Below are positions 1,061 to 30,292 of a stretch of DNA of 32,000 bases, piece by piece. How positions within the stretch are numbered: the stretch's first letter is position 1; each line of letters starts with the position of its first letter. A program made the position numbers and the translations under genes. Source of the stretch: Chlamydiota bacterium (lineage in GTDB: Bacteria > Auribacterota > JACPWU01). The notes under the pieces were generated by a model. The model was not told the origin of the DNA, did no database searches, and was given only the letters and a program-made list of their open reading frames with translations. The stretch is taken from NCBI GenBank assembly GCA_016196885.1, contig JACPWU010000046.1:1-32000 (forward strand). The letters are read 5' to 3'.

Positions 1061-1321
1061 TCACTCTAAGGGTGGAATACAACGAAGAGGGCTCCTTTTT
1101 CTTGCCCGATCCCAATCATCCATCAACTCACTCAGATGAATTTTTCTCCACGCATTCACCAATCCCAAGGCTCGTTTGGACAAAGATCCTTTGATAATTT
1201 TTCCGCTTTCGATCTCAATCACGGCCTCCTCACCGCCATACTTGGCGTGAAAATGGGGTGGAGCATGATCATTCCAATAAATCGCAATGAGAATTCCGAA
1301 AAACCTACTAATGATTGGCAT
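1061..1321 (-). CDS. DUF4160 domain protein
   Basis: 86 aa. MPIISRFFGILIAIYWNDHAPPHFHAKYGGEEAVIEI matches the DUF4160 signature (dH-PPHfHa-Y). Confidence 0.9.
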   Translation of the reverse strand: MPIISRFFGILIAIYWNDHAPPHFHAKYGGEEAVIEIESGKIIKGSLSKRALGLVNAWRKIHLSELMDDWDRARKRSPLRCIPPLE

Positions 1322-1374
1322 GAGCTGATTTTACCATAAAAAGAGATGGACTTTTCAAAAAAAACTTAAACTCA

Positions 1375-4300
1375 TTACATGCTTTTTTCCGTCATCTCCG
1401 TCGTTTCACGAAATTTCTGCATCCTATCACGCCAATGGCTTACGCTTGTGAAGGGCGTGACTTGATGCTCGCCCAAATCCACAAGCAACCCTTTTAGCTC
1501 ATCAGCTTTAAAACCATGCTGAAGCAATGCTCGCGTCATTGCTTCGGCATCCCCATAACAAATAGCTGCCATCACGGAAACCATCTCTTGACCGTACATA
1601 AATTTATCAAAGAGCCCTTGAATGGGCTCGTACAAGTTTCTATTTTCACGATGCCCCAGCAGCCACTTTTCCACTTCCTTCCCCTGAAAAAGTTCCCTCA
1701 CTTTTGTATCAACTGCAGCTCTCGCATCCTGCTCATTCAAATCTGTCAGGAAAAGAACTCTATCTTGAGGAATGTGATGTTCCTTGCAAAGGGCATCAAA
1801 CTCTTCTCTAGATCTTTTTCGTTCCACAAAAACCATTTTGCGATTTTCTGTTCCAGATTCTTTAATGAATTCTGTCGGACTCAAGCCCCCCAAACTTTGA
1901 ACCAGTAAATCCATATCGGGGAATAGACACACAGGTTTTTGATCTGCAGATGGTTTTAAGGCCCCTAAAACTTTTTTCTGAAAATGACGAAGCTTTGTTT
2001 TTAATCCCATCAGATAAGCGAGGGCCAAAGATAAATCTTTAGGCCGTGACACTTGAACATGCGTAACACCCAGCGTCTCGGAATTCAATTGCTCAGTCAT
2101 CTCCCCTATTTCCATTTCAGATAACGCACCCTTCGTATCCTGTCTGATAGACCAGGTCACGTCTGAACTGAAATCAAGGGTAACCAAACCCTTCTGAAAC
2201 TCTCCTCTTTCTACCTTTCCTTCAAGCTCTTGTTCAACATTTCTAACTGTTTGATCTAACCCCTCCTCAGCCAGCAATCTCCTAGTCTCTAGCCCAAGAG
2301 AAAGTCTCTGGGCCTTTGCCTGAAAAGCCTTTGCCTGTTCAATAAGATCCGGATGTTTGACTTGGATCATGAGTTCGACCAGTGCAGCATCTAAAACGCT
2401 AAGATCATTTTCTGAGACAGCAAATGAACGTGTCCCCCTTCCCAACGTCCAAAGAATGTCATAAACCGTTTGGCTCTCCATCCACTCTTTGAGCGAAAGT
2501 CCACCCGTTATTTTCTCCTTTGCCCAGGATTCGAAAGAAAAAATTTCTTTCTTCTTCGTAATCAATATTTTGGAAGGAGCCGCACCACGCATAAAGCCAG
2601 GAGAGAGTAAATAGCTACCGTTGGCAAAAATCTTTGCATTCCCTCCGTGGTCTAGAAGCATCGCCTGAACACAACCTTTCTCGGCCGCAAGCTGAGCAAT
2701 TTCCCCAAGTGTCGTTCCTTCTCTGCCAGATTTTCCGCCATTGCCAAGAAGCACAAAACTCCCATCCTGAGTCACCCCAACAACCGTTCTAGGGTAAACT
2801 CCTTCCTTAAGGAAAATATCAATTCCATTCCCTTTAAAAGCAAATTCTCCTTTTCTTCGAACAGCCCCAGCTTCTTTTTCTTGATATCCCATTTTTTCTA
2901 AAAGCTTACGCAACACCTCTTGAGAAACTGCCTTCTCTTGAAACTCAATACGATCTCCCACTCTTAAACCTACTTTTACCTTAAGAGAAAGATGAATCGC
3001 ATGTATCCATGCCTCTTTTGCCGAGGCATAGTCATTTTCTGAAAGCTCAGATACGCCAAAATAGACTTCTCCTCGCGAGACTATTTCACCTTGAACATCA
3101 GAAATATCTTTAATGAAAATTCTAGGCAACTGAAAGACATGCCTTAAATCTTGAAACTGAGGAATAATATTTTCAATATCTTTCCGAGGATTTCCTCCAC
3201 CCTCTAGAAGAAATTGTCCAAACGTTACACCCTCAACTTCATCCGTAATATCCTGCCCCGCCATTAAAACCTGAATGCGAGCATCCTGCTGTGAATAGGT
3301 AACCTCCCCCATCTCAACTTTTCCATCCTTCTTAATCACAAGAGAACTATACGAATGAGCCGTTGGGTTTTCACTGTCTATATGAAAGAGTTGACCCTGA
3401 GTAAAAGTAACAAAACCTTGATTGAAGAAAAGACACGCATTGTCCGCAAAAGCGATCACATGAAGATCTGGATGTTCTGCTTCAAAAACTTTTACAGCTT
3501 CTTCGTCACTCCGTAAATGCTTTACAACTTCCTTAGGATCATTCGTGCGAACACCCCCTGGACCTGTATAAGTAAATGTTTGCGTATCGTGATCTGCAGT
3601 GATACGCCCCTGAAGATCGGCCTGAACAACCACATGCACTGCATACGCTTGAGGATTCACTTGCACCATTGCGATAGGGACCCCATTGGATGTGGCAGTG
3701 GTAGATATTTTAACTGGCTCTTCGACTGGAGAAAGAATAGGTTCTGGAATTCCTGCATTAATAAAAATTTGGAAAAGGGCCTGAGCTTTAGCCTCAGAAG
3801 ATCCAATAATTGCCGCTCTTATTTCAGACTCATTCGTAAATCGCCTCAATTGCTCTAATAAAGACTGAGAACCCCCTTCATGAGCGATTTGCAGCCATGT
3901 TCTAACCTGATTTTCATCGACACGATAATGAATGGGCCAAGGTAGTATATCTTTTAATTCTTTGAGCAATGAGTCCACAGATATTTCACCAACGCCCTTC
4001 CCCGCCATCGCCAAAGGCTTACTAATTTTTTGCGCAATCACCGCATCGTAGAAGCTATGGGCAAGGCCCACCAGCCCAAGAGCAGCTCCTATCGCAATCA
4101 ATGGGCCAAATGCAGTGAGTCCACCTACGAGAACGACATACGCCTGCCGAAGACCCAGGGCGATCACGAAAAGCCAGCCCCAATCTTTCCAAGTGGCCCT
4201 TGCTCCTTTTAACTCCAGTTTTCCATTCTCTCTCACCCACCGTTTCACTTCTGGATGGAACAAGGGAAACATCAAAGCACTGCCCCAAGAGCCCACATAA

Positions 4301-5427
4301 CGTCCCATCGAACGATCCACGCCAAAAAGATAATGCAAGGCAAGAGAAATTCCCTCTATCATCATCAATGAAAATAAAATTTCCTCCGTCCCGGAAAACC
4401 AGGCAATCGCTCGATCTGAAAAGCCCCATCGTTTTAAAAATTGATAATATCCTGACGCCAGCCCTAGGGAAGAAGCGCTGCCAAATGCTTCCCCATAAAT
4501 ACTCTTGACTTGCCTCGGACTTGATTCTAAGATTTTTCTCATGAATGAGAGAAAGACTCCAAAACCTATTCCTACTCCAGAAGAAACCCAGCGATACAAC
4601 TCCGTCATCATTGAGGAGATGAGAAGCCAATTTAAGGTTTTTGGCGAAGGACTCTCTGGACTGAGAGAGCGCATGGACCTGGGATTTGATGAGACCAGGA
4701 GAGAATTTTTAAAAATCGATAAGCGATTTGAAAAAGTTGACCAAAGATTTGCTAAAGCGGAAGAAACCCTTAAATTCCTTTCCTCTGGATTTTTAGAACT
4801 GAGCGACGGCCAAACCCGAACCCAATCCCAGCTCCAGAAATTAGATGAAAAAGTCTCGAAAATTGACTCTAGAGTCGCAAAGCTAGAAGAAAGCAACGCC
4901 CGTATTGAATCCGATATTCGCCTCATCAAAAACGACATCAAAGTTAAAGTAAGTTTAGAAGAATTTAAAGTGCTTGAAAATAGGCTTGCGATCGTTGAAA
5001 AAAGACTCGCTGCCCTTCCCATCTCTGCTTGATTAGCGCTATTTGAAATCCTTCTGGAACCCCCTATACTGCGTATCAAGCCATCCACATCCCCTTCATA
5101 TCCGCCTAACTCCAGCACTCTTTTCAGATAAATTTCTACGGGATGAGTGGTTTCTTTATCACTCAGAAAAAATCGCATCTGATCTTGCGTGAGCGTGGTC
5201 ACACGCTCAAGCCAGAGAAGAGGATTTTTCTGCAATTCTCCAGGAATTTGCAAATGATCGCCCTTAAGCACTTTTCGCTCTATTTCTCGAATAACCCCTT
5301 CTAAATCTCTCGCCCCCGCTTCCCCATATTCTAAATTAAGTTCTCGGGCCAAAGCTTCTTGATCCCTTTGCCATTGGTCAAATTGGAGAGCAGTGAGCCC
5401 CGCGGCAAGAGCAGCCTCTTCGCCCAA
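1375..5427 (-). CDS. giant multidomain membrane protein: CPBP/Abi-like TM module plus a phosphodiester glycosidase (NAGPA/DUF2233)-like domain; paralog of 22811..27523 in its N-terminal part
   Basis: Uninterrupted 1350-codon frame with a TTG start in the ORF track. CPBP-like motifs: EEILFS, FPLFH and HSFYD inside a hydrophobic block. NAGPA-like stretch: YPRTVVGVTQDGSFVLLGNGGKSGREGTTLGEIAQLAAEKGCVQAMLLDHGGNAKIF. Codons about 130-310 are Ser/Leu/Trp-rich low complexity, being the antisense of the ORF at 4541..5032, so it is uncertain whether one continuous protein is made. The first ~45 codons are homologous to the C-terminal tail of the 666-aa ORF (shared FDQW motif). Confidence 0.6.
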   Translation of the reverse strand: MGEEAALAAGLTALQFDQWQRDQEALARELNLEYGEAGARDLEGVIREIERKVLKGDHLQIPGELQKNPLLWLERVTTLTQDQMRFFLSDKETTHPVEIYLKRVLELGGYEGDVDGLIRSIGGSRRISNSANQAEMGRAASLFSTIASLFSSTLNSSKLTLTLMSFLMRRISDSIRALLSSSFATLESIFETFSSNFWSWDWVRVWPSLSSKNPEERNLRVSSALANLWSTFSNRLSIFKNSLLVSSNPRSMRSLSPESPSPKTLNWLLISSMMTELYRWVSSGVGIGFGVFLSFMRKILESSPRQVKSIYGEAFGSASSLGLASGYYQFLKRWGFSDRAIAWFSGTEEILFSLMMIEGISLALHYLFGVDRSMGRYVGSWGSALMFPLFHPEVKRWVRENGKLELKGARATWKDWGWLFVIALGLRQAYVVLVGGLTAFGPLIAIGAALGLVGLAHSFYDAVIAQKISKPLAMAGKGVGEISVDSLLKELKDILPWPIHYRVDENQVRTWLQIAHEGGSQSLLEQLRRFTNESEIRAAIIGSSEAKAQALFQIFINAGIPEPILSPVEEPVKISTTATSNGVPIAMVQVNPQAYAVHVVVQADLQGRITADHDTQTFTYTGPGGVRTNDPKEVVKHLRSDEEAVKVFEAEHPDLHVIAFADNACLFFNQGFVTFTQGQLFHIDSENPTAHSYSSLVIKKDGKVEMGEVTYSQQDARIQVLMAGQDITDEVEGVTFGQFLLEGGGNPRKDIENIIPQFQDLRHVFQLPRIFIKDISDVQGEIVSRGEVYFGVSELSENDYASAKEAWIHAIHLSLKVKVGLRVGDRIEFQEKAVSQEVLRKLLEKMGYQEKEAGAVRRKGEFAFKGNGIDIFLKEGVYPRTVVGVTQDGSFVLLGNGGKSGREGTTLGEIAQLAAEKGCVQAMLLDHGGNAKIFANGSYLLSPGFMRGAAPSKILITKKKEIFSFESWAKEKITGGLSLKEWMESQTVYDILWTLGRGTRSFAVSENDLSVLDAALVELMIQVKHPDLIEQAKAFQAKAQRLSLGLETRRLLAEEGLDQTVRNVEQELEGKVERGEFQKGLVTLDFSSDVTWSIRQDTKGALSEMEIGEMTEQLNSETLGVTHVQVSRPKDLSLALAYLMGLKTKLRHFQKKVLGALKPSADQKPVCLFPDMDLLVQSLGGLSPTEFIKESGTENRKMVFVERKRSREEFDALCKEHHIPQDRVLFLTDLNEQDARAAVDTKVRELFQGKEVEKWLLGHRENRNLYEPIQGLFDKFMYGQEMVSVMAAICYGDAEAMTRALLQHGFKADELKGLLVDLGEHQVTPFTSVSHWRDRMQKFRETTEMTEKSM
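4505..4533 (+). promoter_or_regulatory. candidate sigma70-type promoter for the embedded plus-strand ORF (TTGACT-17 nt-TAAGAT)
   Basis: TTGACT at 4505-4510, a 17-nt spacer, and TAAGAT at 4528-4533. The ATG at 4541 lies 7 nt after the -10 box and has no SD, which fits a leaderless or near-leaderless transcript. Confidence 0.35.
4541..5032 (+). CDS. coiled-coil protein embedded antisense within the giant ORF
   Basis: 163 codons from the ATG (the ORF track starts at TTG 4505). The composition is protein-like and heptad-like: LRERMDLGFDETRREFLKIDKRFEKVDQRFAKAEETL...LDEKVSKIDSRVAKLEESNARIESDIRLIKNDI...LENRLAIVEKRLAAL. The opposite-strand translation over the same bases is atypical (roughly 25% Ser, several Trp). 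Confidence 0.5.
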   Translation: MNERKTPKPIPTPEETQRYNSVIIEEMRSQFKVFGEGLSGLRERMDLGFDETRREFLKIDKRFEKVDQRFAKAEETLKFLSSGFLELSDGQTRTQSQLQKLDEKVSKIDSRVAKLEESNARIESDIRLIKNDIKVKVSLEEFKVLENRLAIVEKRLAALPISA

Positions 5428-5891
5428 AGAGCCTATTTCCTCAAGAAAGTGAAGCCTCGCGATTTTCTGAAGGGTCGGAAGTGAGGCCTCTTTAAGGCAT
5501 CAGGAGCGCCCGAAACAAATCCAAACTGCTCTTTCATCTTCCTAAAATAGGCGCTGCGATCATTATGACCCGTCATACGAGGCGCAATCACCCAATAACC
5601 GATCTTGGCCTCTTTCAATTTCTTCGTAATCCCTTCCGTATGAAACCCACCCACCACAAGCGCTGCACAGGTGAGTTTCTTTTCCTGAATAATTTCAAGA
5701 GACTTCTCGAACATGATTTGGTCTCGCTTCAGAACTTGGGCATAGAATTTTTGGGAGAGGACGAAGATCTCTCCAAAATCTTCAAGAATAGGGGATGATA
5801 GATTATTTGCTTCAGAATTGACTTCTTTTGTTAAGGTCTTCAGACGATAAAGGAAGTCTTTTACATATTCTTCTTCTCTTTGTGAGTCTTT

Positions 5892-6025
5892 CCTCCCCCT
5901 TATTTTTTTAAGGGGGACTGGGGGGGTTAACTCCTCTTCTTTCATAACTCCCCTAACCCCTCTCAAGCTTTTACAAGATTTTATAGTCCCCACGGGATAG
6001 TCCCCTTGGGATATCTTAAGAGGGG
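5892..6025. repeat. multi-hairpin palindromic element lying in frame inside the coding sequence (same family as 27979..28064 and 28326..28426)
   Basis: Hairpins CCCCCTTA-loop-TAAGGGGG, GGGGGTTAA...TAACCCCTC, and CCCCTCT...AGAGGGG. Translated as SPLK...LRGVRGVMKEEELTPPVPLKKIRGRK. Confidence 0.6.
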
Positions 6026-6925
6026 AAAAAGAACCACCCCATACAACTTTTACATCCCCCCTTTTCCCTTCCAAATTTACAATACGCTTCAACCGTCTAT
6101 AATCGTCCTGAAGTTGAAAAAGTTCTTTCTCTCGATCCTCTCTCAGCAACACTTTAAAGATTTTCTCTTCCACTTGATGAATTTCATTGTCCAACTGTGT
6201 CCATGAGATTTCACTTAAAAACTTCATTTGCTGAAACAGCAATTCCAAATTTTTGTATTTTTGTGAATCCTGAACTCTACTTAAATATTTACTTAAATAT
6301 AAATAATGTTCCTCATCGCTCACCTGTCCTAAGCGATGCTCTAATACTTGTCTCAAAAGTTCTTTCAATTCCTCTTTTGGAAGTTGCTTTTCTAACACTT
6401 CAAGAAATTCTAAATACTCACTCTCTAATTTCTTATGGTTTGTATCCATTTCCAAAGCTTTCAAGGTTTGAAATTTTCCTAACACCGGATTTCTTTCACC
6501 TATTTTTTCTGAAATACTCTCTCGTATAATCCCACCAAATAAGAAACATATGCATCCATGCCTAATTTCAATGTTTCGTAATTTTCTTTCTTTTTCATCA
6601 ACTCCTGAATCTCTTCAGAATAAATTTTCTCTGACAACTTTTGAAATACATGCTCCAAATCCTGCCAGACCTGTTCTTGCCGCCCCTTTTCCTCCAAAAG
6701 CTCACCCATCACTTTGAGGTTCTGAACATAATCAGGCAAATTTTCGACGCCCACCCCTTTCACTTTTTCAGGGCCCTGCTCAATGAGAAAAGCTTCTACC
6801 GCATCCAATTCATTTTTATCCAAGAATTTCTTTAGGCAAGAGGTCAACACCTTTTGATCCGGAAAGGACCAAAAAAAGGACATGTCCATGTCTTTGCTGG
6901 CGGCTTCGGAGAGAACATAAAAAAG

Positions 6926-6989
6926 GCTGGGGAGCTAGGAGGCTAGAGGACTTCCTCTCCCTAGCTTCCCAGCTTCCTAACTTCCTAGC
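6926..6989. repeat. inverted repeat built from 8-nt units (GCTRGGAG arrays facing CTCCYAGC arrays), inside the coding sequence
   Basis: gctggggagctaggaggctagagga / tcctctccctagcttcccagcttcctaacttcctagc. Equivalent element at 29086..29157. Translated as KLGSWEARERKSSSLLAPQ. Confidence 0.7.
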
Positions 6990-7529
6990 TCTGATTGTCA
7001 TTTCTTCTAATATTTCCAATATCCTTTTGATATTCCCTTGTGCTTCAGCATTACAATGAATGTCTTCAATGATAAAAACATGAGGTTGACCTGGAACTGT
7101 GAATGGGTCTATCACTTCTCCAATGGAGGAAGAAAGGTGAAAAGTCTCAAAAGAAGGTTTTAGCTTCCCATATTTGAGAGAGGACGTTCCCTGAGTAGGA
7201 GTTAGAGTTTTTAGAGGGGTTATAAATTGTGAATCTTAGCCCAACGCATAGGAAAAATCGTAGAACAGAAAGGAAATACAAATAAATAGGCTTATGAACG
7301 ACTGAAGACATCGTTTGCGCCCTTTTTGACAAAGCCTCATAAATCCCCCCAGCCTCAGTGTCCTATTATAAAGACGCAATTGAAGGCTCAAATGCCAAAA
7401 AAATAACGTCAAATTGACCCTTCAGTACCCCTTAAACTCCTATTTTTTACCTAAGTCAAAAAAAGAGTAGACTTTTTTATACTTTGGTATAAACTGTAAG
7501 AGATCGTCGGAAACCTTTGGAAAAGTGAT

Positions 7530-8705
7530 ATGTTTATACGATATTTGGAAAAAGCTATCTTAGAAACTTTGCCCAATAAAATGGTTTTTATTTCGGGACC
7601 CCGTCAAGTGGGTAAAACCACCTTGGCTCGTGAAATTGGGAATCGCCTCTATCACAATAGTCATGCCTATCTTAATTGGGATTACATCGAGGATCGAAGA
7701 ATCATTTCCAAGGGCCTACTTCCAACGGATAAAAAGCTTTTTATCTTTGATGAAATCCACAAATATAAGAATTGGAAAAATTACTTGAAGGGACAATACG
7801 ATAAATACAAAGACACGTTTCGCATCCTTGTTACCGGTAGCGCTAGGCTGGATATTTACAGACGTGGTGGAGACTCGCTTCTCGGACGGTATTATTCCTA
7901 TCGTCTGCATCCATTATCTGTCCATGAGCTTAGCAAAGAAGACGTTCATGTCACACCCATGAAAGAACTCCATTTTATTGAAAGAAATGAACAAGAAAAA
8001 ATTTTTGAAATGCTCCTAAAATTTGGAGGATTCCCGGAAGTTTTCTTTAAACAAAATGAGAAAAATCTTCGCCTTTGGCATCATCAACGCATAGACCGAT
8101 TGGTCAAAGAGGACATTCGAGATGTTGAAAATCTAAGAGACATTTCAGCACTGCAAATTCTGGTAGATATTTTACCCGAAAAAGTGGGTTCTCTCTTTTC
8201 GCTCAACAGCCTCCGAGAAGATTTTAACGTCGCTTATAAAACCATTGCCCTCTGGATGGAGGTGTTGGAAAAATTTTATTATCATTTTCGAATTTATCCC
8301 TATCAGAACACCTTGATTAAATCCCTTCGAAAGGAACCCAAGCTTTATTTATGGGATTGGTCTCAAGTCAAAAACGAAAACGCAAGATTGGAAAATATGG
8401 TAGCCTCTCATCTCTTAAAATTCGTGCACTATCTATCGGATGTTGAAGGGTTTAAAACTCAACTGTCTTATTTAAGAGATAAAGAACAGAGGGAAGTAGA
8501 CTTTATGGTTAGCTTGGACGGGAAACCATGGTTTTGTGTTGAGGTCAAACAAAGTTCAACAGAAGTCCCCAGCTCCTTAAAGTATTTTGCTTCAAAACTT
8601 AAAATCCCTTTTGTTTATCAAGTGACCGGAGAAAAAGATTTTGATTTCATGAAGGACAATGTTCGCATCATTAGCGCATCGAAGTTTTTGAGCGCATTGG
8701 TATAA
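7530..8705 (+). CDS. AAA-family ATPase with a DUF4143-type C-terminal domain
   Basis: Walker A GPRQVGKTT, Walker B LFIFDEIH, ILVTGSARLDIYRRGGDSLLGRYYSYRLHPLS; length 391 aa is typical of the AAA_14/DUF4143 family. Confidence 0.9.
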   Translation: MFIRYLEKAILETLPNKMVFISGPRQVGKTTLAREIGNRLYHNSHAYLNWDYIEDRRIISKGLLPTDKKLFIFDEIHKYKNWKNYLKGQYDKYKDTFRILVTGSARLDIYRRGGDSLLGRYYSYRLHPLSVHELSKEDVHVTPMKELHFIERNEQEKIFEMLLKFGGFPEVFFKQNEKNLRLWHHQRIDRLVKEDIRDVENLRDISALQILVDILPEKVGSLFSLNSLREDFNVAYKTIALWMEVLEKFYYHFRIYPYQNTLIKSLRKEPKLYLWDWSQVKNENARLENMVASHLLKFVHYLSDVEGFKTQLSYLRDKEQREVDFMVSLDGKPWFCVEVKQSSTEVPSSLKYFASKLKIPFVYQVTGEKDFDFMKDNVRIISASKFLSALV

Positions 8706-22598: not shown

Positions 22599-22814
22599 TT
22601 AAACATTCTCCAGAAGAGAACTGATCTGTTTACGGCGAGTCTCCAATTCATCCAATTCGAAAAAGTCTTCCCAACCCTCTTCTTCGCGAATCTTACCCGA
22701 TTGTATGAATTGATCCAACTGAAACACATCTTTTACTTCATGACGAGATGCAATTCTAAAAATCTCCGATTCCACATGACGCAACTGTTGCTCCAAATAA
22801 GTCCGCAGACTCAT
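22599..22814 (-). CDS. small acidic hypothetical protein, start overlapping the giant ORF stop (ATGA)
   Basis: 71 aa. ATG 22814-22812 overlaps TGA 22813-22811. No family recognised. Confidence 0.5.
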   Translation of the reverse strand: MSLRTYLEQQLRHVESEIFRIASRHEVKDVFQLDQFIQSGKIREEEGWEDFFELDELETRRKQISSLLENV

Positions 22815-25800
22815 TTGACACGGATTTGGTCTTTTTCGCCGCCCATAACTAAAACAAGATTTCCTGCAATATCATTTTGATTAGTCATGGGCCAAAAATC
22901 TGAATCTTTTAAACCATGTTGATCTTTATCTACATCCCCTTTTGCGTCAAAGAAACGAGCATCTATTTTCATTTGCCTTAAGAAATGTACCATAGCCAAA
23001 ACTTCTTGAGCCCGTTCAGGATTCTCAAGCGACCTTACATCAAATGCAAATTTGAGAGGCACTCTTAAATCTGTGATCCTGCCTTGAATCGCCTTTTTTA
23101 AATTTGCCTTCAAGCTCCAAAGCTTTTTCACAGAAAGTGCAGCCCCCAAGCCCCATCTCATTTTTTCTTGAGGAGAAAGATCAGAAGAAGCCACTTCTAC
23201 ATGAACACTCGCGTCTCGAAGACTCAAAGCATCTCTCAAGGAAGTATCCAACGTTACAGAATCTTCGGAAATTCCAGCAGCCTCTTCACTCAAAGCTCGT
23301 ACTTCCCCGTCGCGAATGTTTAAAACAATCCCTTCTTTATGCGTAAAAGTGTCTCCTGCCAAACGCTCCATTCTCTGAACTTGATCTGCTACACCCGTCT
23401 GAGCAAACCCATACATCATGCGAAGCTCTAAAGCTAAACGCTGTATTTCCCCTCCTCTCTGCTCATATATTGAAAGACTCAATTCTTCTATTAAAACATC
23501 CAGCGTATTGCGCGATAGACGAGGATGATCACGTAGATATTTATCCAAAATATCTGCGAATGTCCTAAGAACTTCTGCATCTGAAATATCTCTGCGAGAT
23601 AAATAATCATCGAAGGCCCTATTTTCTATCAACGCATCATTATCTGTCAACCAGCCCATAAACTTGAGCATAACTCTTTGACGGAGGTCTAAAAAGTAAA
23701 GACTCCTGCTATCCAACAGCCTATGAACTAGAGAAACATCTTCATCTCTCATTTGCTTGACCAACCTAGATTCAGACGACAAAGTCTCAAGAAATGCTGT
23801 TTTGAAATCATCTGAATTCTCTATAAGACTTATATCTTGCACGAGACCTGTCCTTAAAATCTCAATATCTTGATATGTCAAAACTCCATGCAACTCATCG
23901 CCTTTTTTACTCATCTCATGCATAGCCTCATGCGAAGTGCCATAAATCCAGTCGGCTTGGCGATGTTCTTGAGGAATGTTGGTGAGATGCTTTAGATTAA
24001 CGAAAAATTTCCCATCGCCCACACAGTTTCCGTAGGGCGAGCGAAAGTCATAACCCTCTTTGAGATGCTTTTCATCTCCAAAATAAAAGGTGTATTCCCC
24101 ATCCGCTAAAGTTGTTGTTTCAAATTCTAAATCCTCTGCCCTTGCTCGAATAAAATCGCCCCATTTCTTCAGGAACTCTTGCTCTTGATCCGCTTTAATT
24201 CCTAAAAGTCGATAGAGCGCTTTTTTCTCATCAGAATCGGGAACACTAAACTGGCCGTCCGTCACTGTTATTGTGATCGGGTTGCCATCCAAGAGTATAT
24301 TCACCTGAGCCATTTCTTGAGAAGGATATTCTAAGTCCGACCTGTTCTGAGCGTCAAAATGGGCGTATGATCCCCCTTCAACAAGAACATTCTTCTCAGT
24401 GTCATACCTCACACTGATTTGCTCTAAATATTTCTGAAACGCCTGCTGAACGTTACGTAACAATTGCCAATCCTGATCTGTCAAAGGAACACTCACAACA
24501 TTTTGATTATGCTCATGTTGTGTTCCTCTTAGCTCGCTCCATTTATTGAGAGAGGGATAGAGCCTTGTGTATTTTTCAGGATAACCGGCCAGATAGCCTG
24601 CGAGTTCGATTAACTCTGTATCTGAAAGACCTTTTAAATCCATTGGGTAGGTTTTCACTTTTAGAATTTGCCATCCCGTCCCTTCAAAAGTCTTTTGTGC
24701 CGTGGCTCCCACCCGCAATAAGAGCGGAGGAGAAGTGACCAATTCCACTTTAAGATCAGAACGGCCGAGAAAAAGTCTCTCGACCCCTTGTTTGCTGTTG
24801 ACCAAAGTATCCACCGTCACGCGTGATGGTTGTTCTTCTATATGAATCAATTCAGGCTCATCAAATTTAGATAAAATCCCTTCTTTTTCAAAACAAAATT
24901 TTAGGATATCCGATTCTAAAAAACTTTCATCCGTGATACCTTTCTCCAACCGCTTCTTCTCAGCAGGAGTTAATGTTCCCAAAGCTTCATAGTGGACAAT
25001 GGTTTTTTCTATCAAAGGAATCGTTCCTCTTCCTCGGCCAGCAGCGATGACAATGGGAATACGCAGGCCTCTCTCATCTCGAATTCCCTTCCATGTATTC
25101 GCAAACTCTATAAAAGCTCGAAGATCCGGATTTCCTAAAGCGAGAAAAACATCCGGTAACTGATCCGAAAGTTCATCTCCTTGCGAAAGAAAATCCACGT
25201 AATCTTGAAAAACTGTTTTGAAATTTTCCCTTGCTTCCTGCAAAGGTTCTTTTCCTAAAGCAACAGTATCACTGAAAAATTTCCGCTCCTCAGGCGTTCC
25301 ATGATCACGAAGCCAACCCTTAACGTACCCCTCAGATTCGTCATATCCTCTCTGAGCTAGCTCTAAAATTTCTCTTTCCTCCCAACGAGACGCTATAGCA
25401 CCTATAAATTCAAAAACCTGAACTGTATTTTTTTTCCCAAGACGTCTAGAAATCTTACCTAGTACAGAACATACTGGTTCTTGAAGATAAACCTTTTGTT
25501 TTTCCTCCTCTGAAATTTCATCTCCTATGGCCAAGCGCGCAGAAATACCCCCCACGCCTCCAGTCTGCATAAGTTTCCGCTGATTCGCGCTCGATCTTCC
25601 CTGAATAACCGGACTCCCTCGTTCCTGAAGCGCTTCCAAAATCCCAAAATGAGCTGCACCATAAAGCAATATGACCGCATAACCTTTCTGCGATGCTTCT
25701 AAAACCTGTTCGACGATGCGACGATTCCTATTAGTCGCATACACGCTCCAAGCACTAACAACTTCATCCATCCATTGAAAATATTGAAGGCTTTGTTCTG

Positions 25801-27523
25801 GTGTTCTAAGGCCAGTAGAAAAAAAATACTCCAAAGCCCGTGTCCTTCTTCCTTCCTTCCAGAAGCCGGACAACCAATCTTGGAACTGAATGTCCTCAAG
25901 AATAACCCTCGTATGTGTTTGAGCTATCCATTGCATGAGCATTGCTTCAAAATCTGAAACACATTTTTGAACCCAGTTAAAAACAACCCCGCTGTTTAGA
26001 ATAGACTCGTATGCCTTTCTCATAGCCTGAAGTTGAAAATCAAAATGATGCCTCTTCAATACATTCTCAATGAAATCAGGGATTTGTTCCACCGTCTTAA
26101 TAAATTCGTCTGGTAATAAAGATAAAAGAGAACGATATTCTCCTGAAATGTCTGCTGGACTAAGCCGGGCAGGTCCACCATTGTCTAATATCAAAACAAG
26201 TCTCCGCCCTTCTTCACTGGCCTTACGCCTTGCTTCTTCTAAATCTGGAAGATGCTTTTCAAAATCCTCCTTCGATTGATTAGCCATTGCAATGTATGTA
26301 ATGGAACCTGGTGGAATGCCTGCAGAGGTATCTATTTTTTTAGGCATTTGTAGCTTTTTTCTATTCCATTCATTCACCAAATTCGCGATACGACCAGCCG
26401 GAGCATTTCCTCCTGTAAAATCTAAAACTCTGAGTATTTTCTGAACAATCTTTGTATTTAACGCTTTTCCCTGGCTCCTGGTTAAAAGTTCTCTGAGCTG
26501 GCGATCTAAGTCCGCGTCACTTGATCTTTTTTTCCGTTTAATCCCATTGACTTTTAAAATCTCTCGTTTCAGTTTTTGAAAATCATCATCTGCTAATACC
26601 AACTGATAGGGTTTCGGCATAACGAGGTTATAAATCACATGCCCCGCATACGCCCACAAAGCCTGATTCCACCCCGAACTCCCTTTAGAATATTCAGCAA
26701 ATTTGTCGAAGAAACTCAAACTCTCGGGATCAAAAGAAGCAAGCGCTACGGGAAGTAAACTACTGATGAGAGTGGCAGCAAACCAACGAACTAAAAATTG
26801 TGTGAACTTTTCTTTAGTAGTTAATCCCGGTGGCGCATGAATCAAATGAATCAGGGCAAAAATGAAAGCCCCCACCGGAATCCCCCACACGCCCAATACC
26901 GGCGCCAAAAAACGCGCAAACCCCGGCAAGCCCAAAAGTTCTAACGCTGGAATTACACCTACTCTCACCCAGCGCTTCTTTAAAATCTCATCAGCCCTGG
27001 CCTGGGCCTTATCTTTCTCCATTCCACCCAGCCTCAGAACTCCGTCTAGAACCCAGTTCCAGAGGGGGAGAACGAGTTGAGATAAACCATCTTCCGCCAA
27101 CCCTTCTTGATCCATAGGTAAGCTGATCCTTACAAGATCTTTTTTCTCCAAGCCAGGGGGTCGCGATACTTCCACCTCACTTGATCCAGTTTCACTTGGT
27201 GCAGCGGACACCACCCCTACCATTTCTCCCATCAACTGAAGCGTTCTAACCCCTAGAAAATTTTTTGAATTTCTTTTCCCATCTTTAGCGTCGCCTCCCA
27301 CATATTTCTCCATCAAATCACGAAACTCTTCATATCCCTCCCCCAAAGATTCTTTTAAATAGGCCTCTGTCAATTTTTGAATCGTTCCACCCTCATGCAA
27401 AAGTTGATTCATTTGTTTCAATTTATTGGTTAATTCTGGATCTAAAATGGAGCTTGTCGAATGCCCATGTTTTTTTTGAGCGCTTGAATCACAGGTTTTA
27501 GAGAGGGAACTGATTTTTCCCAT
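22811..27523 (-). CDS. giant multidomain membrane protein: CPBP/Abi-like TM module, TraB/GumN-like C-half, DUF218/YdcF-like domain, HExxH motif
   Basis: 1570-codon frame. CPBP-like FIFALIH and AGHVIYNLV sit in a hydrophobic block. TraB/GumN-like NRNRRIVEQVLEASQKGYAVILLYGAAHFGILEAL. DUF218-like DVFLALGN...IPIVIAAGRGRGT...ESDILKFCFEKEGI...IHIEEQPSRVTVDTLVNS...VELVTSPPLLLRVG. Zincin-like GTSHEAMHEM. The first 27 codons overlap the upstream ORF; an alternative start is ATG 27412 (MNQLL). Confidence 0.75.
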   Translation of the reverse strand: MGKISSLSKTCDSSAQKKHGHSTSSILDPELTNKLKQMNQLLHEGGTIQKLTEAYLKESLGEGYEEFRDLMEKYVGGDAKDGKRNSKNFLGVRTLQLMGEMVGVVSAAPSETGSSEVEVSRPPGLEKKDLVRISLPMDQEGLAEDGLSQLVLPLWNWVLDGVLRLGGMEKDKAQARADEILKKRWVRVGVIPALELLGLPGFARFLAPVLGVWGIPVGAFIFALIHLIHAPPGLTTKEKFTQFLVRWFAATLISSLLPVALASFDPESLSFFDKFAEYSKGSSGWNQALWAYAGHVIYNLVMPKPYQLVLADDDFQKLKREILKVNGIKRKKRSSDADLDRQLRELLTRSQGKALNTKIVQKILRVLDFTGGNAPAGRIANLVNEWNRKKLQMPKKIDTSAGIPPGSITYIAMANQSKEDFEKHLPDLEEARRKASEEGRRLVLILDNGGPARLSPADISGEYRSLLSLLPDEFIKTVEQIPDFIENVLKRHHFDFQLQAMRKAYESILNSGVVFNWVQKCVSDFEAMLMQWIAQTHTRVILEDIQFQDWLSGFWKEGRRTRALEYFFSTGLRTPEQSLQYFQWMDEVVSAWSVYATNRNRRIVEQVLEASQKGYAVILLYGAAHFGILEALQERGSPVIQGRSSANQRKLMQTGGVGGISARLAIGDEISEEEKQKVYLQEPVCSVLGKISRRLGKKNTVQVFEFIGAIASRWEEREILELAQRGYDESEGYVKGWLRDHGTPEERKFFSDTVALGKEPLQEARENFKTVFQDYVDFLSQGDELSDQLPDVFLALGNPDLRAFIEFANTWKGIRDERGLRIPIVIAAGRGRGTIPLIEKTIVHYEALGTLTPAEKKRLEKGITDESFLESDILKFCFEKEGILSKFDEPELIHIEEQPSRVTVDTLVNSKQGVERLFLGRSDLKVELVTSPPLLLRVGATAQKTFEGTGWQILKVKTYPMDLKGLSDTELIELAGYLAGYPEKYTRLYPSLNKWSELRGTQHEHNQNVVSVPLTDQDWQLLRNVQQAFQKYLEQISVRYDTEKNVLVEGGSYAHFDAQNRSDLEYPSQEMAQVNILLDGNPITITVTDGQFSVPDSDEKKALYRLLGIKADQEQEFLKKWGDFIRARAEDLEFETTTLADGEYTFYFGDEKHLKEGYDFRSPYGNCVGDGKFFVNLKHLTNIPQEHRQADWIYGTSHEAMHEMSKKGDELHGVLTYQDIEILRTGLVQDISLIENSDDFKTAFLETLSSESRLVKQMRDEDVSLVHRLLDSRSLYFLDLRQRVMLKFMGWLTDNDALIENRAFDDYLSRRDISDAEVLRTFADILDKYLRDHPRLSRNTLDVLIEELSLSIYEQRGGEIQRLALELRMMYGFAQTGVADQVQRMERLAGDTFTHKEGIVLNIRDGEVRALSEEAAGISEDSVTLDTSLRDALSLRDASVHVEVASSDLSPQEKMRWGLGAALSVKKLWSLKANLKKAIQGRITDLRVPLKFAFDVRSLENPERAQEVLAMVHFLRQMKIDARFFDAKGDVDKDQHGLKDSDFWPMTNQNDIAGNLVLVMGGEKDQIRVK

Positions 27524-29442
27524 TGATCAAATTCTTGAGAAGAAAGATTAGCCTTCTGAAGCATTTTTTCTCCTAGGCCTTCCATTACTTCATAAAATCC
27601 CTCTTTCGATGGCTCTTCTATAAATTCATTAAATTCTTTCATTTTTTGAAAATAAACGCGGCGATCATCTATTTTTTCTGAATGGGGGGCAATGACGCAG
27701 TAGCCCATCTCAGCTTCTTTTAATTTTTCTTTGAGGGCATCTGTATGAAAACCTCCGACGACGACAGCGGCATTTTGAAGTTTCTTTTCTTTGATCTCTT
27801 GAGAAAGTTTCTGATAGAAAATTTTGTCTCGATCAAGCACTTTTTTGTAAAACTTTTTGGCGGTCTGGAAGATGTTTTCAAAGTCAGGGGATTCGAAAGA
27901 GAGGTTATTTTCTTCGCACAACTTTCTTAAGGCTTGAGAAAAGTTTATTACGTACTCTTCTTCTCTTTGTGAGTTTTTCCTCCCCCTTATTTTTTTAAGG
28001 GGGATTGAGGGGGTTACTTCCTCCTCTTTCATAACTCCCCTAACCCCTCTTAACTTAAGAGGGGAACGAAGGCCACTCCATATAGCTTTTAAATCTTCTC
28101 TCTTTCCCTCCATCGATATCACTCGCTTCAAAACAGTGTAATCATTTTCAAGCTTCAGCAGTCTCTTGATTTCCTTTTCATTTCCTTTTCCCCTGTACGC
28201 TGAACGCTCTACGCTGCCCGCTAATTTTTCAACCTCTGAGTCCAATTTTTCCCATGAGATTTTTTTCATAAGGGACATCTGCTCGATAAAAAATTTGAGA
28301 TTGGGATAGAGTTCTTTTTGTTTTTCCCTCCCCTTAATATAAGGGGAGCCGGTGGGGTTATTGACTTCTTCCATAACTCCCCCTACCCCTAACTCCCCAG
28401 GCCCCTCTTTAAAAAAAAGAGGGGGGACGTTCTCTTCATGTTCTGGTTCTAGATATTTACTTAAGAAAAGATAATGCGCTTCATCCCCAATTCTCCCCAA
28501 ACGATGTTCCAGCACATTTTTCATCACTTCGTTAAGTTCTTCTTTCGTCAACTGTTTCTCTAATGTTTGAAGAAATGAAAGATATTCGCTTTCGACTCTC
28601 GACATATCTGTTTTCTTCTCAAGAGTTTGAAGTTTTAAATAAAGACTTATTTGAGGAAAATCCTCTTCTAACTTCAAACCTCTAACATTTAACTGCTGTA
28701 GATATTCCCCCATTCCAATTTTGAAATCTTCATATTGCTTCTTTTTTTTCATCAACTCTAAAAGTTCTTGAGGATAAATTTTTTCTCTCAAACTTTGAAA
28801 CAATTCTTCCAAATCGCTCCACACATGCTCTTGAAGTTCTCGCTCTTCCATCAATTCATTCATGAGTTTTACATTCTCAAGATAGGGCTGAAGTTCTTCA
28901 ACGCCCAAACCGATTGCTCCACCAGTTTTTTCTCCCATTAAAAAGGACTCCACGCCATTGATGTCTCTATCCTGAATGAACTGATCTTGAACCAAAGGCA
29001 GTATTTCTTTTTTTGGAAAAGCTGTAAAAAAACTCATGTCCATCCATCCCGTCGCAGCCTCGGAAAAAACACAAAAAGACTGGCTGGAAAGCTGGGAGGC
29101 TAGGAGGCTGGGAGAAAGCTTTTGCTGTTTAGCTTCCCAGCTCCCCAGCTTCCTAGCATCTTTTGTTTCTTCCTTCAACACCTTCAATATCCTCGCTATG
29201 TTCCTCTCAACCTCTGGATTACAATGAATATCCTCAATTAAGAAGACGGTAGGATTCCCCGATAAAAGCACTTGATCTGTGATTTCTCCCATATCTGCAG
29301 GGATTGGGTTGGAATTCAAGAACATGTCCGGCTGGGAGGGGAGATAAGTCTTAATTGCTTGATGTGGAATGGGTTGTGAATAAGGCTCTATTTGTTGACT
29401 CCAACTTGGTTGAATATCATAAGAGACAAAGCAAAGACACAA
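27442..29442 (-). CDS. Tiki/TraB/ChaN-superfamily protein (intact paralog of 5433..7332)
   Basis: N-terminal VFLIEDIHCNPEVERNIARIL (ChaN/erythromycin-esterase-type GE-H-N motif). C-terminal LDRDKIFYQKL...AAVVVGGFHTDALKEKLKEAEMGYCVIAP (TraB/GumN-type motif). The track start is TTG. An ATG at 29470 with a hydrophobic leader lies one frame off. Confidence 0.75.
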   Translation of the reverse strand: MCLCFVSYDIQPSWSQQIEPYSQPIPHQAIKTYLPSQPDMFLNSNPIPADMGEITDQVLLSGNPTVFLIEDIHCNPEVERNIARILKVLKEETKDARKLGSWEAKQQKLSPSLLASQLSSQSFCVFSEAATGWMDMSFFTAFPKKEILPLVQDQFIQDRDINGVESFLMGEKTGGAIGLGVEELQPYLENVKLMNELMEERELQEHVWSDLEELFQSLREKIYPQELLELMKKKKQYEDFKIGMGEYLQQLNVRGLKLEEDFPQISLYLKLQTLEKKTDMSRVESEYLSFLQTLEKQLTKEELNEVMKNVLEHRLGRIGDEAHYLFLSKYLEPEHEENVPPLFFKEGPGELGVGGVMEEVNNPTGSPYIKGREKQKELYPNLKFFIEQMSLMKKISWEKLDSEVEKLAGSVERSAYRGKGNEKEIKRLLKLENDYTVLKRVISMEGKREDLKAIWSGLRSPLKLRGVRGVMKEEEVTPSIPLKKIRGRKNSQREEEYVINFSQALRKLCEENNLSFESPDFENIFQTAKKFYKKVLDRDKIFYQKLSQEIKEKKLQNAAVVVGGFHTDALKEKLKEAEMGYCVIAPHSEKIDDRRVYFQKMKEFNEFIEEPSKEGFYEVMEGLGEKMLQKANLSSQEFDQWEKSVPSLKPVIQALKKNMGIRQAPF
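27979..28064. repeat. multi-hairpin palindromic element in frame within the CDS (family copy)
   Basis: cctcccccttatttttttaaggggg / gagggggtta...ctaacccctc / cccctcttaacttaagagggg. Translated as SPLKLRGVRGVMKEEEVTPSIPLKKIRGRK. Confidence 0.65.
28195..28222. repeat. array of four 7-nt units inside the CDS
   Basis: gtacgct gaacgct ctacgct gcccgct. Translated as AGSVERSAYRG. The paralog has unrelated sequence at this position. Confidence 0.6.
28326..28426. repeat. multi-hairpin palindromic element in frame within the CDS, absent from the paralog
   Basis: ccctccccttaatataagggga ... ggtggggtta...ccctacccct ... cccctctttaaaaaaaagagggggg. It corresponds to a ~36-40 aa insertion (NVPPLFFKEGPGELGVGGVMEEVNNPTGSPYIKGREK) relative to the 350-aa paralog fragment. 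Confidence 0.7.
29086..29157. repeat. inverted repeat of 8-nt units in frame within the CDS
   Basis: gctgggag gctaggag gctgggag - aaagcttttgctgttt - agcttccc agctcccc agcttcct agc. Translated as KLGSWEAKQQKLSPSLLASQLSSQ. Confidence 0.75.
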
Positions 29443-29675
29443 AATGACACTGATGAGTTTTTGAACTCATTTCATAAAAATGTCTTTACCTCTATAAAAA
29501 TTCATAACTTATTTATATACAAAAAGATACGACATTATTATTTTTTAAAAAACAAGGCCGCACGAGATTATCATTCAATGAGAATAGACATTTTATGAAG
29601 GGGAAAGGTCAAAGGAGAAAAAATGTGATTTTGGATTTTAAATAGGATAGAATGACTCTTAGTAAGGAGTTTTTC

Positions 29676-29966
29676 ATGCCTCTCTACGAGTTTCTCAAGA
29701 AAAGAAGAAATGACATCCTTCAAGCTGCTCTGCGACATGGGGCAAAAAACGTACGCTTGTTTGGCTCGGTTACACGTAAAGAAGAAAATACCCAAAGTGA
29801 CATTGACCTTCTCGTCGAAATGGAAAAAGGGAGAAGTTATCTTGACTTAGTTGAGTTATGGCAAGAATTAGAGGAACTTCTTGGGAAGAAAGTAGACCTT
29901 CTGACAGACGGAGGGATCAGTCCTTATTTAAAAGATCGCATTTACTCTGAAGCCATTCCCTTATGA
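29676..29966 (+). CDS. mntA: nucleotidyltransferase antitoxin (MntA type)
   Basis: RLFGSVTRKEENTQSDIDLLVEM (GS-x10-DxD). Start set at ATG 29676, preceded by AAGGAG at a 6-nt spacing (the track start 29652 is also possible). The stop overlaps the hepT start (ATGA). Confidence 0.85.
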   Translation: MPLYEFLKKRRNDILQAALRHGAKNVRLFGSVTRKEENTQSDIDLLVEMEKGRSYLDLVELWQELEELLGKKVDLLTDGGISPYLKDRIYSEAIPL

Positions 29967-30292
29967 AGGACAACTCCCTTTATCTTCTGCATATTCGAGA
30001 CGCACTCGATCTCATCCTGGAATATGCTTCTTCAGGGAAAGAGTTTTTCATGCAAGATAAGAAAACTCAAGATGCAATCATTCGCAATCTTGAAATTCTT
30101 GGAGAAGCAACGAAAAATATCCAGGAAGATTTTAGACAAGTGCATTCAGAAATTCCTTGGAAGGCTTTGGCCGGAATGAGAGATAAACTAGCCCATGATT
30201 ATTTTGGCGTTAATCTTGAGATTGTATGGGAAGTTGTGGACAAAAGAATTCAAGAACTTAAGGAAAAGATTAATAACCTTTTAAACAACTGA
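29963..30292 (+). CDS. hepT: HEPN/DUF86 toxin (HepT type)
   Basis: 109 aa with the Rx4HxY motif (MRDKLAHDYFG) and the typical IIRNLEILGEA segment. Confidence 0.88.
   Translation: MKDNSLYLLHIRDALDLILEYASSGKEFFMQDKKTQDAIIRNLEILGEATKNIQEDFRQVHSEIPWKALAGMRDKLAHDYFGVNLEIVWEVVDKRIQELKEKINNLLNN

Follow-up and report, generated by a model that had tools for sequence, protein, structure and literature searches.

We analysed a window of 32,000 nucleotides (nt) from a metagenome-assembled genome (MAG) of a Chlamydiota bacterium (assembly GCA_016196885.1; contig JACPWU010000046.1, positions 1 to 32,000 of the forward strand). On its minus strand lie three open reading frames (ORFs) of 666, 1570 and 71 codons, the second of which we call the giant ORF, and, towards the left end, a decayed paralogue. 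A preliminary description of this DNA had located the three ORFs, their motifs and the overlap of the 71-codon start with the giant stop, all of which we find where it placed them; it took the ORFs for a two-gene cassette with an accompanying small ORF, duplicated in the same genome. The alignments described below lead elsewhere: on their evidence, the 666- and 1570-codon ORFs together make up one gene of ~2,220 codons, read in two frames. We give a probability of roughly 0.6 to the reading that this is one chlamydial gene for a modular, membrane-embedded multi-enzyme protein, broken at codon 3 and at a run of eight A residues (A8).

Table 1. Features of the locus. Positions are those of the window; residues are those of the giant ORF; aa, amino acids; kaa, thousand amino acids.
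Feature	Position	Strand	Giant residues	Basis	Relatives
Whole reconstructed gene, 2,221 codons after adding one A to the A8 run	22811..29475	minus		repaired translation, BLASTP	
ATG AAA TGA: ancestral start codon, then nonsense codon at codon 3	29467..29475	minus		alignment with P0003 and P0004	
Predicted remnant of an N-terminal Sec-type signal peptide or signal anchor	29395..29466	minus		hydrophobic stretch aligned with P0003 and P0004	
ORF of 666 codons, TTG start	27442..29442	minus		reading frame confirmed	
Head: TraB/GumN (TIKI-superfamily)-like domain with ~330-aa helical insert	27613..29280	minus		hhalign, conserved motifs	
In-frame palindromic DNA patch, two GC-rich hairpins, peptide SPLKLRGVRGVMKEEEVTPSIPLKKIRGRKNSQ	27960..28070			paralogue comparison	
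A8 homopolymer, site of the frame change	27470..27477	minus		DNA alignment with the sister contig	
ORF of 1570 codons (giant)	22811..27523	minus		reading frame confirmed	
Module A, membrane block, 4-5 hydrophobic helices	26570..27097	minus	143-318	hydropathy, 7-sequence alignment	P0006 (three copies), P0090 (4,566 aa), P0091, P0099
Module B, predicted complete TraB/GumN-type domain	25244..26326	minus	~400-760	alignment, hhalign	~20, small secreted proteins among them
Module C, predicted DUF218 domain (YdcF/SanA/ElyC-type)	24374..25243	minus	~761-1050	transitive via relatives	~60 (over ~760-1050), mostly within 0.8-7.8 kaa proteins
Module D, S-H-E-x-x-H-E, with HEAMH at 23918-23932 and an Asp in LTxQD	23744..24373	minus	~1051-1260	family alignments	~10 (over ~1050-1260)
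Module E, C-terminal domain without assigned function	22817..23608	minus	1306-1569	P0006 match	P0006 only
ORF of 71 codons, start overlapping the giant stop (ATGA)	22599..22814	minus		ORF position	
Left paralogue, decayed	1375..7313	minus		tblastn, codon usage, profile matches	

The 666- and 1570-codon ORFs lie in different frames and overlap by 82 nt (27442-27523), with the A8 run inside the overlap. Adding one A to this run produces a single frame of 2,221 codons, from an ATG at 29475 to the stop at 22811, whose translation contains a single internal stop, at codon 3. The junction is crossed without a gap by one BLASTP segment (residues 640-968 of the repaired protein against 1-342 of P0006, 67% identity). 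P0006 (MBI1869940.1, annotated as a partial phosphodiester glycosidase family protein) is encoded in the sister MAG GCA_016178055.1, one of whose contigs begins inside its ORF; as it starts at the contig end, within the tail of the domain that we call the head, its length is at least 5,912 aa. The first 39 residues of P0006 match the tail of the 666-aa ORF, and the protein continues in the same frame at 65% identity to giant residues 9-317. Alignment of the window with the sister at the DNA level puts the frame change in or next to the run GCGCTC-AAAAAAAA-CATGGGC. The annotated ATG of the giant ORF (27523) is located in the conserved "DQW" of the tail of the head, with no Shine-Dalgarno-like sequence before it. 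In P0003 (929 aa, locus-tag series HYZ67, cut by a contig end) the head is followed by at least 300 further residues in one ORF, and in the left paralogue the head frame leads, after its last frameshift, into a 1350-codon ORF. Because the sister-contig alignment, the gap-free repaired frame, the P0003 fusion and the missing ribosome-binding site all bear on it in the same way, we read the two ORFs as one gene. The order of head and body, whose conservation in related genomes had been proposed as a check on the cassette, is indeed kept in the sister and in P0003, but there as one frame and not as a gene pair.

The interruption does not seem to be peculiar to one contig. NCBI annotates two genes, with products of 625 and 1570 aa, and identical products of both lengths are on record for two contigs (67,210 and 67,284 nt), meaning that the indel has turned up at least twice. 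The 1570-codon ORF has gene-like codon usage along its full length. The context A AAA AAC fits a -1 slippery heptamer; the RNA downstream is without stable structure (z = +1.1), and we rejected programmed -1 frameshifting and took the change as a 1-nt deletion. Slippage on A8 that rescues the frame is possible but unsupported. The 71-codon ORF, which had been counted as part of the cassette, is not conserved beside the sister gene, which is followed by other small genes (95 aa and PIN_3), and it is probably an unrelated small gene. A precomputed Pfam match of this ORF to PF27273 (MJ0235) is on record, whereas our fresh scans with Pfam and NCBIfam, which covered the window ORFs and five sub-segments, gave no Pfam match for it; the PF27273 model may be newer than the library that was scanned.

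A second lesion lies at the start of the gene. Upstream of the TTG the frame extends to the ATG at 29475, with an in-frame TGA (29467-29469) at codon 3: ATG AAA TGA GTT CAA AAA... reads MK-stop-VQKLISVILCLCFVSYD and, the stop aside, matches the signal peptides of P0003 and P0004. In P0003 the signal peptide is MNLLRKLMSSFLILTFLVYD...ALAQ, of which MNLLRKLMSSFLILTFLVYDL...ALAQ aligns with the hydrophobic stretch of the window. We infer that this stretch is a signal peptide, now truncated, and that the protein, if intact, would be exported or anchored by its N-terminus. TGA, TAA and TAG each terminate confident genes in this genome, so that the standard code holds and the codon-3 TGA is an ordinary stop. 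With both lesions in place, the gene is in all likelihood either inactive or weakly expressed; unless slippage on A8 restores the frame, its sole product would be a head that lacks the signal peptide. In each paralogue a stop falls in the signal peptide or directly behind it: on the right it is the TGA of codon 3, on the left a TAA following ...FSYALG.

The head contains IEDIHCNPE at residue 69 of the 666-aa ORF, DRD at 537 and VVVGGFHT at 560. At the DNA level the EDIH motif occupies 29212-29238 and the RD...GGFH motif 27742-27834; these and an SEAA motif are kept in paralogues. Against a TraB/GumN profile of six annotated proteins (E. coli YbaP and five plasmid genes), the whole head scored 26.6 in hhalign (P 0.013), and the head minus its ~330-aa insert scored 32.9 (P 5.9e-4, probability 29%), which none of 60 shuffles reached. 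Its sole Pfam match, to DUF5682, is sub-threshold (E 0.11), and a head profile found no meaningful match among PDB sequences. A structure predicted with AlphaFold2 (AF2) had a mean predicted local distance difference test score (pLDDT) of 46.5, with strands at FLIEDI, VFSE, VVVGG and YCVIAP of local pLDDT 70-84; Foldseek with this low-confidence model found no match in the PDB. The profile comparison supports a TraB/GumN-like head of moderate similarity, more strongly after removal of the insert. The Tiki/TraB-like assignment made in the preliminary description holds to that extent, although no Pfam model reaches threshold. A word-indexed search of 5.8 billion proteins returned, for the head family, the protein itself, a 343-aa fragment of the left paralogue and two partial chlamydial relatives, and scans of genome and metagenome contig collections for the family found no relatives.

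Module B, in the giant ORF, carries NRNRR (residue 598) and YGAAHFG (621), which had been taken for a second TraB-like C-terminal half. A 14-sequence alignment of the module scored 48.4 in hhalign against the same TraB/GumN profile (E 1.4e-5, probability 80%, 238 columns), compared with 14.0 +/- 1.9 and a maximum of 18.5 for block shuffles, and placed "ITYI..aH" on "LiGsIH" and "RN...llyGaaH" on "RN...vGAlH". The module is TraB-like, as proposed, but by this alignment it is a whole TraB-type domain, not merely a C-terminal half. R599, G622 and H625 are invariant in the family and E543 is nearly so. The first catalytic His is conserved in the relatives that cover the site; in the window protein it is Asn (IAMANQS), and this copy of module B may therefore be inactive or work differently. 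Pfam gave sub-threshold matches to DUF5694 (E 0.033) and, in relatives, to TraB_PrgY_gumN (E 0.015), and a module B profile found no meaningful match among PDB sequences. No signal was seen by hhalign between the head and module B, or between either of them and YbaP alone; only multi-sequence family profiles had enough power here. Members of the TIKI family combine two His and two Glu residues with a basic residue (Arg) on a parallel sheet core, and TIKI enzymes cleave peptides or esters (PMC6254334).

Upstream of module B lies the membrane block, in which CPBP/Abi-type motifs had been noticed. FxxxH is a defining motif of CPBP proteins, and the block has FALIH at giant residue 222 and HVIYN at 295. 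Across the seven aligned blocks E195, F222/H226, R246 and H295/N299 are invariant. Against a profile of nine annotated CPBP sequences hhalign gave a score of 18.5 (P 0.071, probability 0.8%) with Glu, FxxxH and HxxxN all in register, while block shuffles scored 12.1 +/- 2.1 (maximum 17.2; 0 of 80 reached 18.5). The window's block has no Pfam match even at E <= 10, and one of the seven related blocks matches the Pfam Rce1-like model at E 0.028. The published CPBP motifs are EExxxR and HxxxN (PMC11980579), and the former is absent: a single invariant Glu (IPALE, E195) is present, and neither another Glu nor an Arg at +4 or +5 accompanies it. An AF2 model of the block had a pLDDT of 62, and Foldseek with that model came back empty; the block profile found no meaningful match among PDB sequences, and hhalign against the single CPBP domain of the relative P0059 gave no signal. 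We describe the block as weakly CPBP-like and not as a demonstrated CPBP member: FxxxH and HxxxN are invariant and align with those of CPBPs, but the missing Pfam match, the P value and the loss of EExxxR speak against a formal assignment. Structure prediction and fold search, proposed beforehand as a check, thus yielded low-confidence models and empty searches for both head and membrane block.

The topology of the block was judged from its charges. Lys and Arg residues number 7 before the first transmembrane segment (TM1), 2 between TM2 and TM3 and 12 after TM4, the loop from TM3 to TM4 is acidic, and an amphipathic helix spans giant residues 148-167; together the loop charges and this helix favour an N-terminus outside and a C-terminus inside.

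Module C includes AAGRGRG (residue 827) and LVTSPP (928). Its ~60 relatives match it at E values down to 1e-85, and six of them (P0041, P0013, P0016, P0017, P0038 and P0070) pass the Pfam DUF218 model (PF02698) inside the matched region, at 28.1-38.3 bits against a gathering threshold of 27.6; these six match giant residues ~760-1050 at E 1e-20 to 1e-61, and E values of 1e-37 to 1e-69 are also seen for threshold-passing relatives. The window protein itself has no direct Pfam DUF218 match. The DUF218/YdcF-like module of the preliminary description is thereby supported transitively, through homology to these relatives. Two DUF218 proteins, SanA and ElyC, are anchored in the membrane and act in the biogenesis of peptidoglycan and envelope and in the metabolism of their precursors (PMC3879167, PMC12176290).

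In module D, the HEAMH at residue 1198 belongs to an HExxH(E) motif kept in 11 of 12 family members; E160, H163 and E164 of the alignment are invariant, and H159 and D180 (in LTxQD) nearly so. Pfam and PDB sequences gave no match for the module. The zincin signature proposed earlier is thus conserved but finds no family there, and we treat module D as a putative zincin-type metallopeptidase. Module E matches the C-terminus of P0006 alone (5542-5809, 44% identity) and has no Pfam match. Overall, direct Pfam and NCBIfam scans of the window proteins returned sub-threshold matches only for the proposed modules, but hand-built profiles support TraB and relatives support DUF218.

The giant ORF has a wide but modular kinship. 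The word-indexed search returned, for the giant, itself only, whereas HMMER with giant residues 140-1339 against 1.84 billion representatives found 97 proteins, most of 2-7.8 kaa, which we resolved into modules by local phmmer (Table 1). In P0006 the membrane block occurs three times (159-351, 2383-2581 and 3913-4104), as does module D (2928-3132, 4260-4510 and 5057-5273). Elsewhere in the relatives the modules stand beside metallophosphatase, GT1, GT2, NDK, GDPD, NUDIX, HEAT, UDPGP, QRPTase, trypsin, M48, ABC1 and Rce1-like CPBP domains. Few of the 20 relatives that were looked up are named: P0006 and P0020 come from Chlamydiae, and P0010, a 3,968-aa "glycosyltransferase" that shares the DUF218-type module, from Omnitrophota. 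Going by these domain matches, the modules appear to belong to a pool shuffled among 0.8-7.8 kaa proteins of bacteria of the Planctomycetota-Verrucomicrobiota-Chlamydiota (PVC) group. Multi-enzyme giant proteins have been described for Omnitrophota (10.64898/2026.06.07.730766).

Three relatives show the membrane block in other surroundings. Within residues 1485-1819 of the metagenomic P0099 (3,709 aa) the block is followed at less than 100 residues by Peptidase_M48 (HtpX/Ste24-type, E 1e-12), which places a CPBP-like block and a zinc membrane-protease module next to each other. P0091 (376 aa, from a Joint Genome Institute metagenome) joins the block to a C-terminal XRE-type helix-turn-helix and is the sole small protein found with the block. 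P0090 (L005/L006 6001-19701; 4,566 aa), which contains the block and has no precomputed Pfam match, is encoded between leucine- and histidine-biosynthesis genes on a 2.15-Mb metagenome contig.

The preliminary description had seen the left copy as a duplicate of the unit. In a tblastn search of positions 1300-7400 with the right head as query, the left head (7313 to ~5350) runs through frames 1, 2, 1 and 3, its fragments being 44-58% identical to the right head in protein; it has at least three frame changes and one stop. The paralogue comprises a signal peptide, the TAA stop at 7236-7238, a TraB-like head spread over three frames, a linker, an antisense stretch, a different membrane block and a NAGPA region. 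After a frameshift near 5448-5514 the head frame enters the 1350-codon ORF, whose first residues (LGEEAALAAGLTALQFDQWQRD) match the tail of the right head (LGEKMLQKANLSSQEFDQWEKS) and whose residues ~97-112 (EIYLKRVLELGGYEG) match the start of the right giant (EAYLKESLGEGYEEF). Paralogy ends with the N-terminal head and linker: the 1350-aa left body and the 1570-aa right body, C-termini included, have no detectable similarity, and the left membrane block is not significant against the right one. We rejected a CPBP reading of the left block, since 7 of 80 shuffles reach its score. The left body holds a NAGPA phosphodiester glycosidase domain (PF09992, E 4e-12), and residues 476-1031 of the 1350-aa ORF match P0006 3040-3600 (25% identity, E 5e-31). 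On these comparisons the left copy is a pseudogene, and the paralogues of this genome have a common head and different bodies; the unit as a whole was not duplicated.

Codon usage is of the non-coding type across residues 101-300 of the 1350-aa ORF. A plus-strand 175-codon coiled-coil ORF at 4505-5032 (~530 nt), antisense to residues ~132-307, scores better; the stretch has no counterpart in the right gene, yet is open on both strands, and we found no flanking repeats and no plasmid homologue for the plus-strand ORF.

The head also carries palindromic DNA. The in-frame patch listed in Table 1 is 93% identical over 91 nt to positions 5873-5963 of the left paralogue, compared with ~67-70% in other aligned stretches. 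The head has a second, degenerate copy of it at 28320-28425, and a further palindrome at 29083-29157. Additional palindromic patches occur in the left copy (6926-6989) and in L002 (2973-3062), and a patch other than the 93% identical one is shared by part of the family but missing from P0003. Such patches resemble the in-frame palindromic elements of Rickettsia genes. A dispersed repeat was considered and set aside, no further copies being found in the window or in the sister contig L004; the high identity between paralogues could alternatively reflect local gene conversion.

The surroundings are those of an ordinary chromosome, with genes for AlaRS, RecA, CinA, MnmA, a cysteine desulfurase-type aminotransferase, CoaX, BirA and MraZ, among which lie toxin-antitoxin-like pairs and an AAA_14/DUF4143 ATPase gene. 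The latter adjoins a giant gene twice, beside the left copy in the window (7530-8705, plus strand) and in the sister contig (L004 18730-19878). Toxin-antitoxin-like pairs flank the giant genes in the window (HepT/MNT at 29652-30292 and DUF4160/DUF2442 at 808-1321) and in L004 (two pairs of a 95-aa gene and PIN_3).

Put together, the repaired gene would encode, in order, a Sec-type signal peptide, a TraB/GumN head with a helical insert, a linker, a CPBP-like membrane block, a second TraB/GumN domain, a DUF218 domain, an HExxHE putative metallopeptidase and a C-terminal domain without assigned function. The intact protein would be inserted in the inner membrane and would keep hydrolytic modules together there: TraB-type domains (peptide- or ester-cleaving), DUF218 and, in paralogues, a NAGPA glycosidase. 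Its protease-like modules, HExxH and perhaps the CPBP-like block, may process either substrates or the protein that carries them. From this domain content we infer a membrane-tethered hydrolase assembly. A role in the envelope or on surface glycans is plausible by analogy, given the roles of SanA and ElyC, the glycosidase name of NAGPA in Pfam and the cleavage of peptides or esters by TIKI enzymes. Nothing that we found bears on the links to peptide-signal or bacteriocin processing and immunity that the preliminary description had mentioned for TraB/PrgY and CPBP proteins.

Several observations weigh against this picture. The similarity of the head to TraB is moderate (probability 29%) and required removal of the insert, and members of the head family turned up only in three Chlamydiae MAG locus-tag series (HYS08, HYS07 and HYZ67). 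The CPBP reading is weak: it draws on motifs and an empirical shuffle control, with no Pfam match, a P of 0.07 and an empty fold search, and neither the head nor the membrane-block AF2 model is confident. The topology is ambiguous, as the charges place the C-terminal modules on the cytoplasmic side, whereas module B relatives that stand alone have signal peptides; neighbours of the stand-alone module B genes give no functional hint. Finally, both copies in this genome are interrupted, and the protein may not be made at all.

This last point could have another explanation, in which the gene is intact in the living organism and the missing A, perhaps also the TGA, reflects a MAG consensus or assembly error, strain heterogeneity or phase variation. 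The frame change falls exactly in an A8 run, and the downstream frame of 1,554 codons is still open with normal codon usage, so that any inactivation must be very recent. On the other side, the indel was recovered at least twice, in identical products on two contigs; the TGA is a substitution and not a homopolymer error; and the neighbouring paralogue, with its three or more frame changes and a stop, shows that the family does decay in this genome. We regard an intact gene as unlikely.

A more exotic possibility concerns the target of the protein. Chlamydiae are generally host-associated, and the paralogues with a common head and different bodies, as well as the sister protein, in which membrane block and HExxH module recur three times each with varying cargo in between, would suit a host-directed multi-effector toxin or polyprotein of the MARTX kind, exported, cut by its own HExxH and CPBP-like modules and acting with its TIKI and glycosidase domains on a eukaryotic host. 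The MARTX effector RRSP is itself a TIKI-family endopeptidase within a multi-effector toxin (PMC6254334). However, neither RTX repeats nor a cysteine protease domain nor secretion-system signals came up in Pfam and NCBIfam scans of the window proteins and P0006. The modules are also found beside housekeeping-type enzymes (NDK, NUDIX, UDPGP and QRPTase) in proteins from Omnitrophota and further uncultured bacteria, the genes of the relatives sit in ordinary chromosomal neighbourhoods, and multi-pass membrane blocks argue for a protein that stays in the producer's membrane. A host toxin is, in our judgement, decidedly improbable.

The repeats in P0006 also invite the idea of a self-processing membrane polyprotein, each unit of which would consist of a CPBP-like protease block, variable cargo and an HExxHE peptidase, with the precursor cut into its enzymes. 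Were this so, it would amount to a modular, shufflable way of delivering enzyme sets, in which paralogues combine a common exported TraB-like head with different cargo and the sister protein represents three units; we consider it a long shot. A two-gene cassette with a small ORF, duplicated and acting jointly in peptide processing, immunity or envelope remodelling, is very improbable: NCBI does annotate two genes, an 82-nt overlap is seen in some translationally coupled genes and a related head stands upstream of another long ORF in the window, but head and body share one frame in the sister genome and in P0003, one added A gives a gap-free colinear frame, the ATG at 27523 lies within the conserved QW of the head's tail with no ribosome-binding site, the bodies of the two copies are unrelated and the 71-codon ORF is not conserved.

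If the reading of a single, broken gene for a membrane-embedded multi-enzyme protein is right, multi-enzyme giant proteins reach from Omnitrophota to Chlamydiota, and among the modules shuffled between them are divergent subfamilies of TraB/TIKI and DUF218 that go undetected in this protein by the standard Pfam and NCBIfam models. The pool would also contain an HExxHE domain and a Glu/His/His/Asn membrane block without a Pfam, NCBIfam or PDB match, and the repeated unit of membrane block and HExxH module offers a concrete hypothesis for how giants are anchored or processed. More practically, pairs of long "orphan" ORFs in MAGs can be the halves of a single gene broken at a homopolymer, and small hand-built family profiles can recover homology that standard hidden Markov model scans miss.

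With the TraB/GumN/PrgY/ChaN/Tiki proteins (TIKI superfamily; PF01963 and relatives) the head and module B share, in two whole-domain alignments, a first-strand His, an RN/RD helix and a GxxH strand in register; the spacing from R to H is 26-29 residues, as between R4001 and H4030 of RRSP (PMC6254334), and the head and stand-alone relatives have signal peptides, as TraB/PrgY/ChaN proteins do. They differ in that no Pfam model reaches threshold, that EDIH replaces GxxH in the head, which has the ~330-aa insert, that the first His of module B is Asn, and that both domains sit in a multidomain protein of 2.2 kaa instead of standing alone. Module C is homologous to domains that pass the DUF218 threshold, the family of E. 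coli YdcF, SanA and ElyC, but represents a divergent ~290-aa subfamily, which Pfam misses directly here and which is found mostly inside giant proteins. The membrane block has the four consecutive hydrophobic helices of CPBP/Rce1-like proteins (PF02517), with an invariant Glu, FxxxH and HxxxN in CPBP order, and the relative P0059 holds a true PF02517 domain together with module B; here, by contrast, EExxxR is reduced to P-x-x-E, and the block lies in the middle of a giant and in three copies in the sister protein.

Among whole proteins, MARTX toxins are likewise very long precursors with several enzymatic modules, one of them (RRSP) of the TIKI family, but we found no RTX repeats, cysteine protease autoprocessing domain or type I secretion context, and internal multi-pass membrane blocks instead. 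The closer comparison is with the multi-enzyme giants of Omnitrophota ('class 1', 10.64898/2026.06.07.730766; also 10.1101/2023.11.21.568195). Those were catalogued from a cut-off of >=10 kaa, whereas the proteins considered here measure 2.2 kaa in the window, at least 5.9 kaa in the sister and up to 7.8 kaa among relatives; the window protein and its sister are chlamydial, with an exported TraB-like head and repeated units of membrane block and HExxH module, and the main texts of the two preprints do not contain the terms DUF218, TraB or CPBP. Both groups of proteins nevertheless tile many unrelated enzyme domains, repeat modules internally and come from the PVC superphylum; the omnitrophotal P0010 shares the DUF218-type module, and the partner domains of our relatives (glycosyltransferases, NUDIX and others) overlap the preprint's list.

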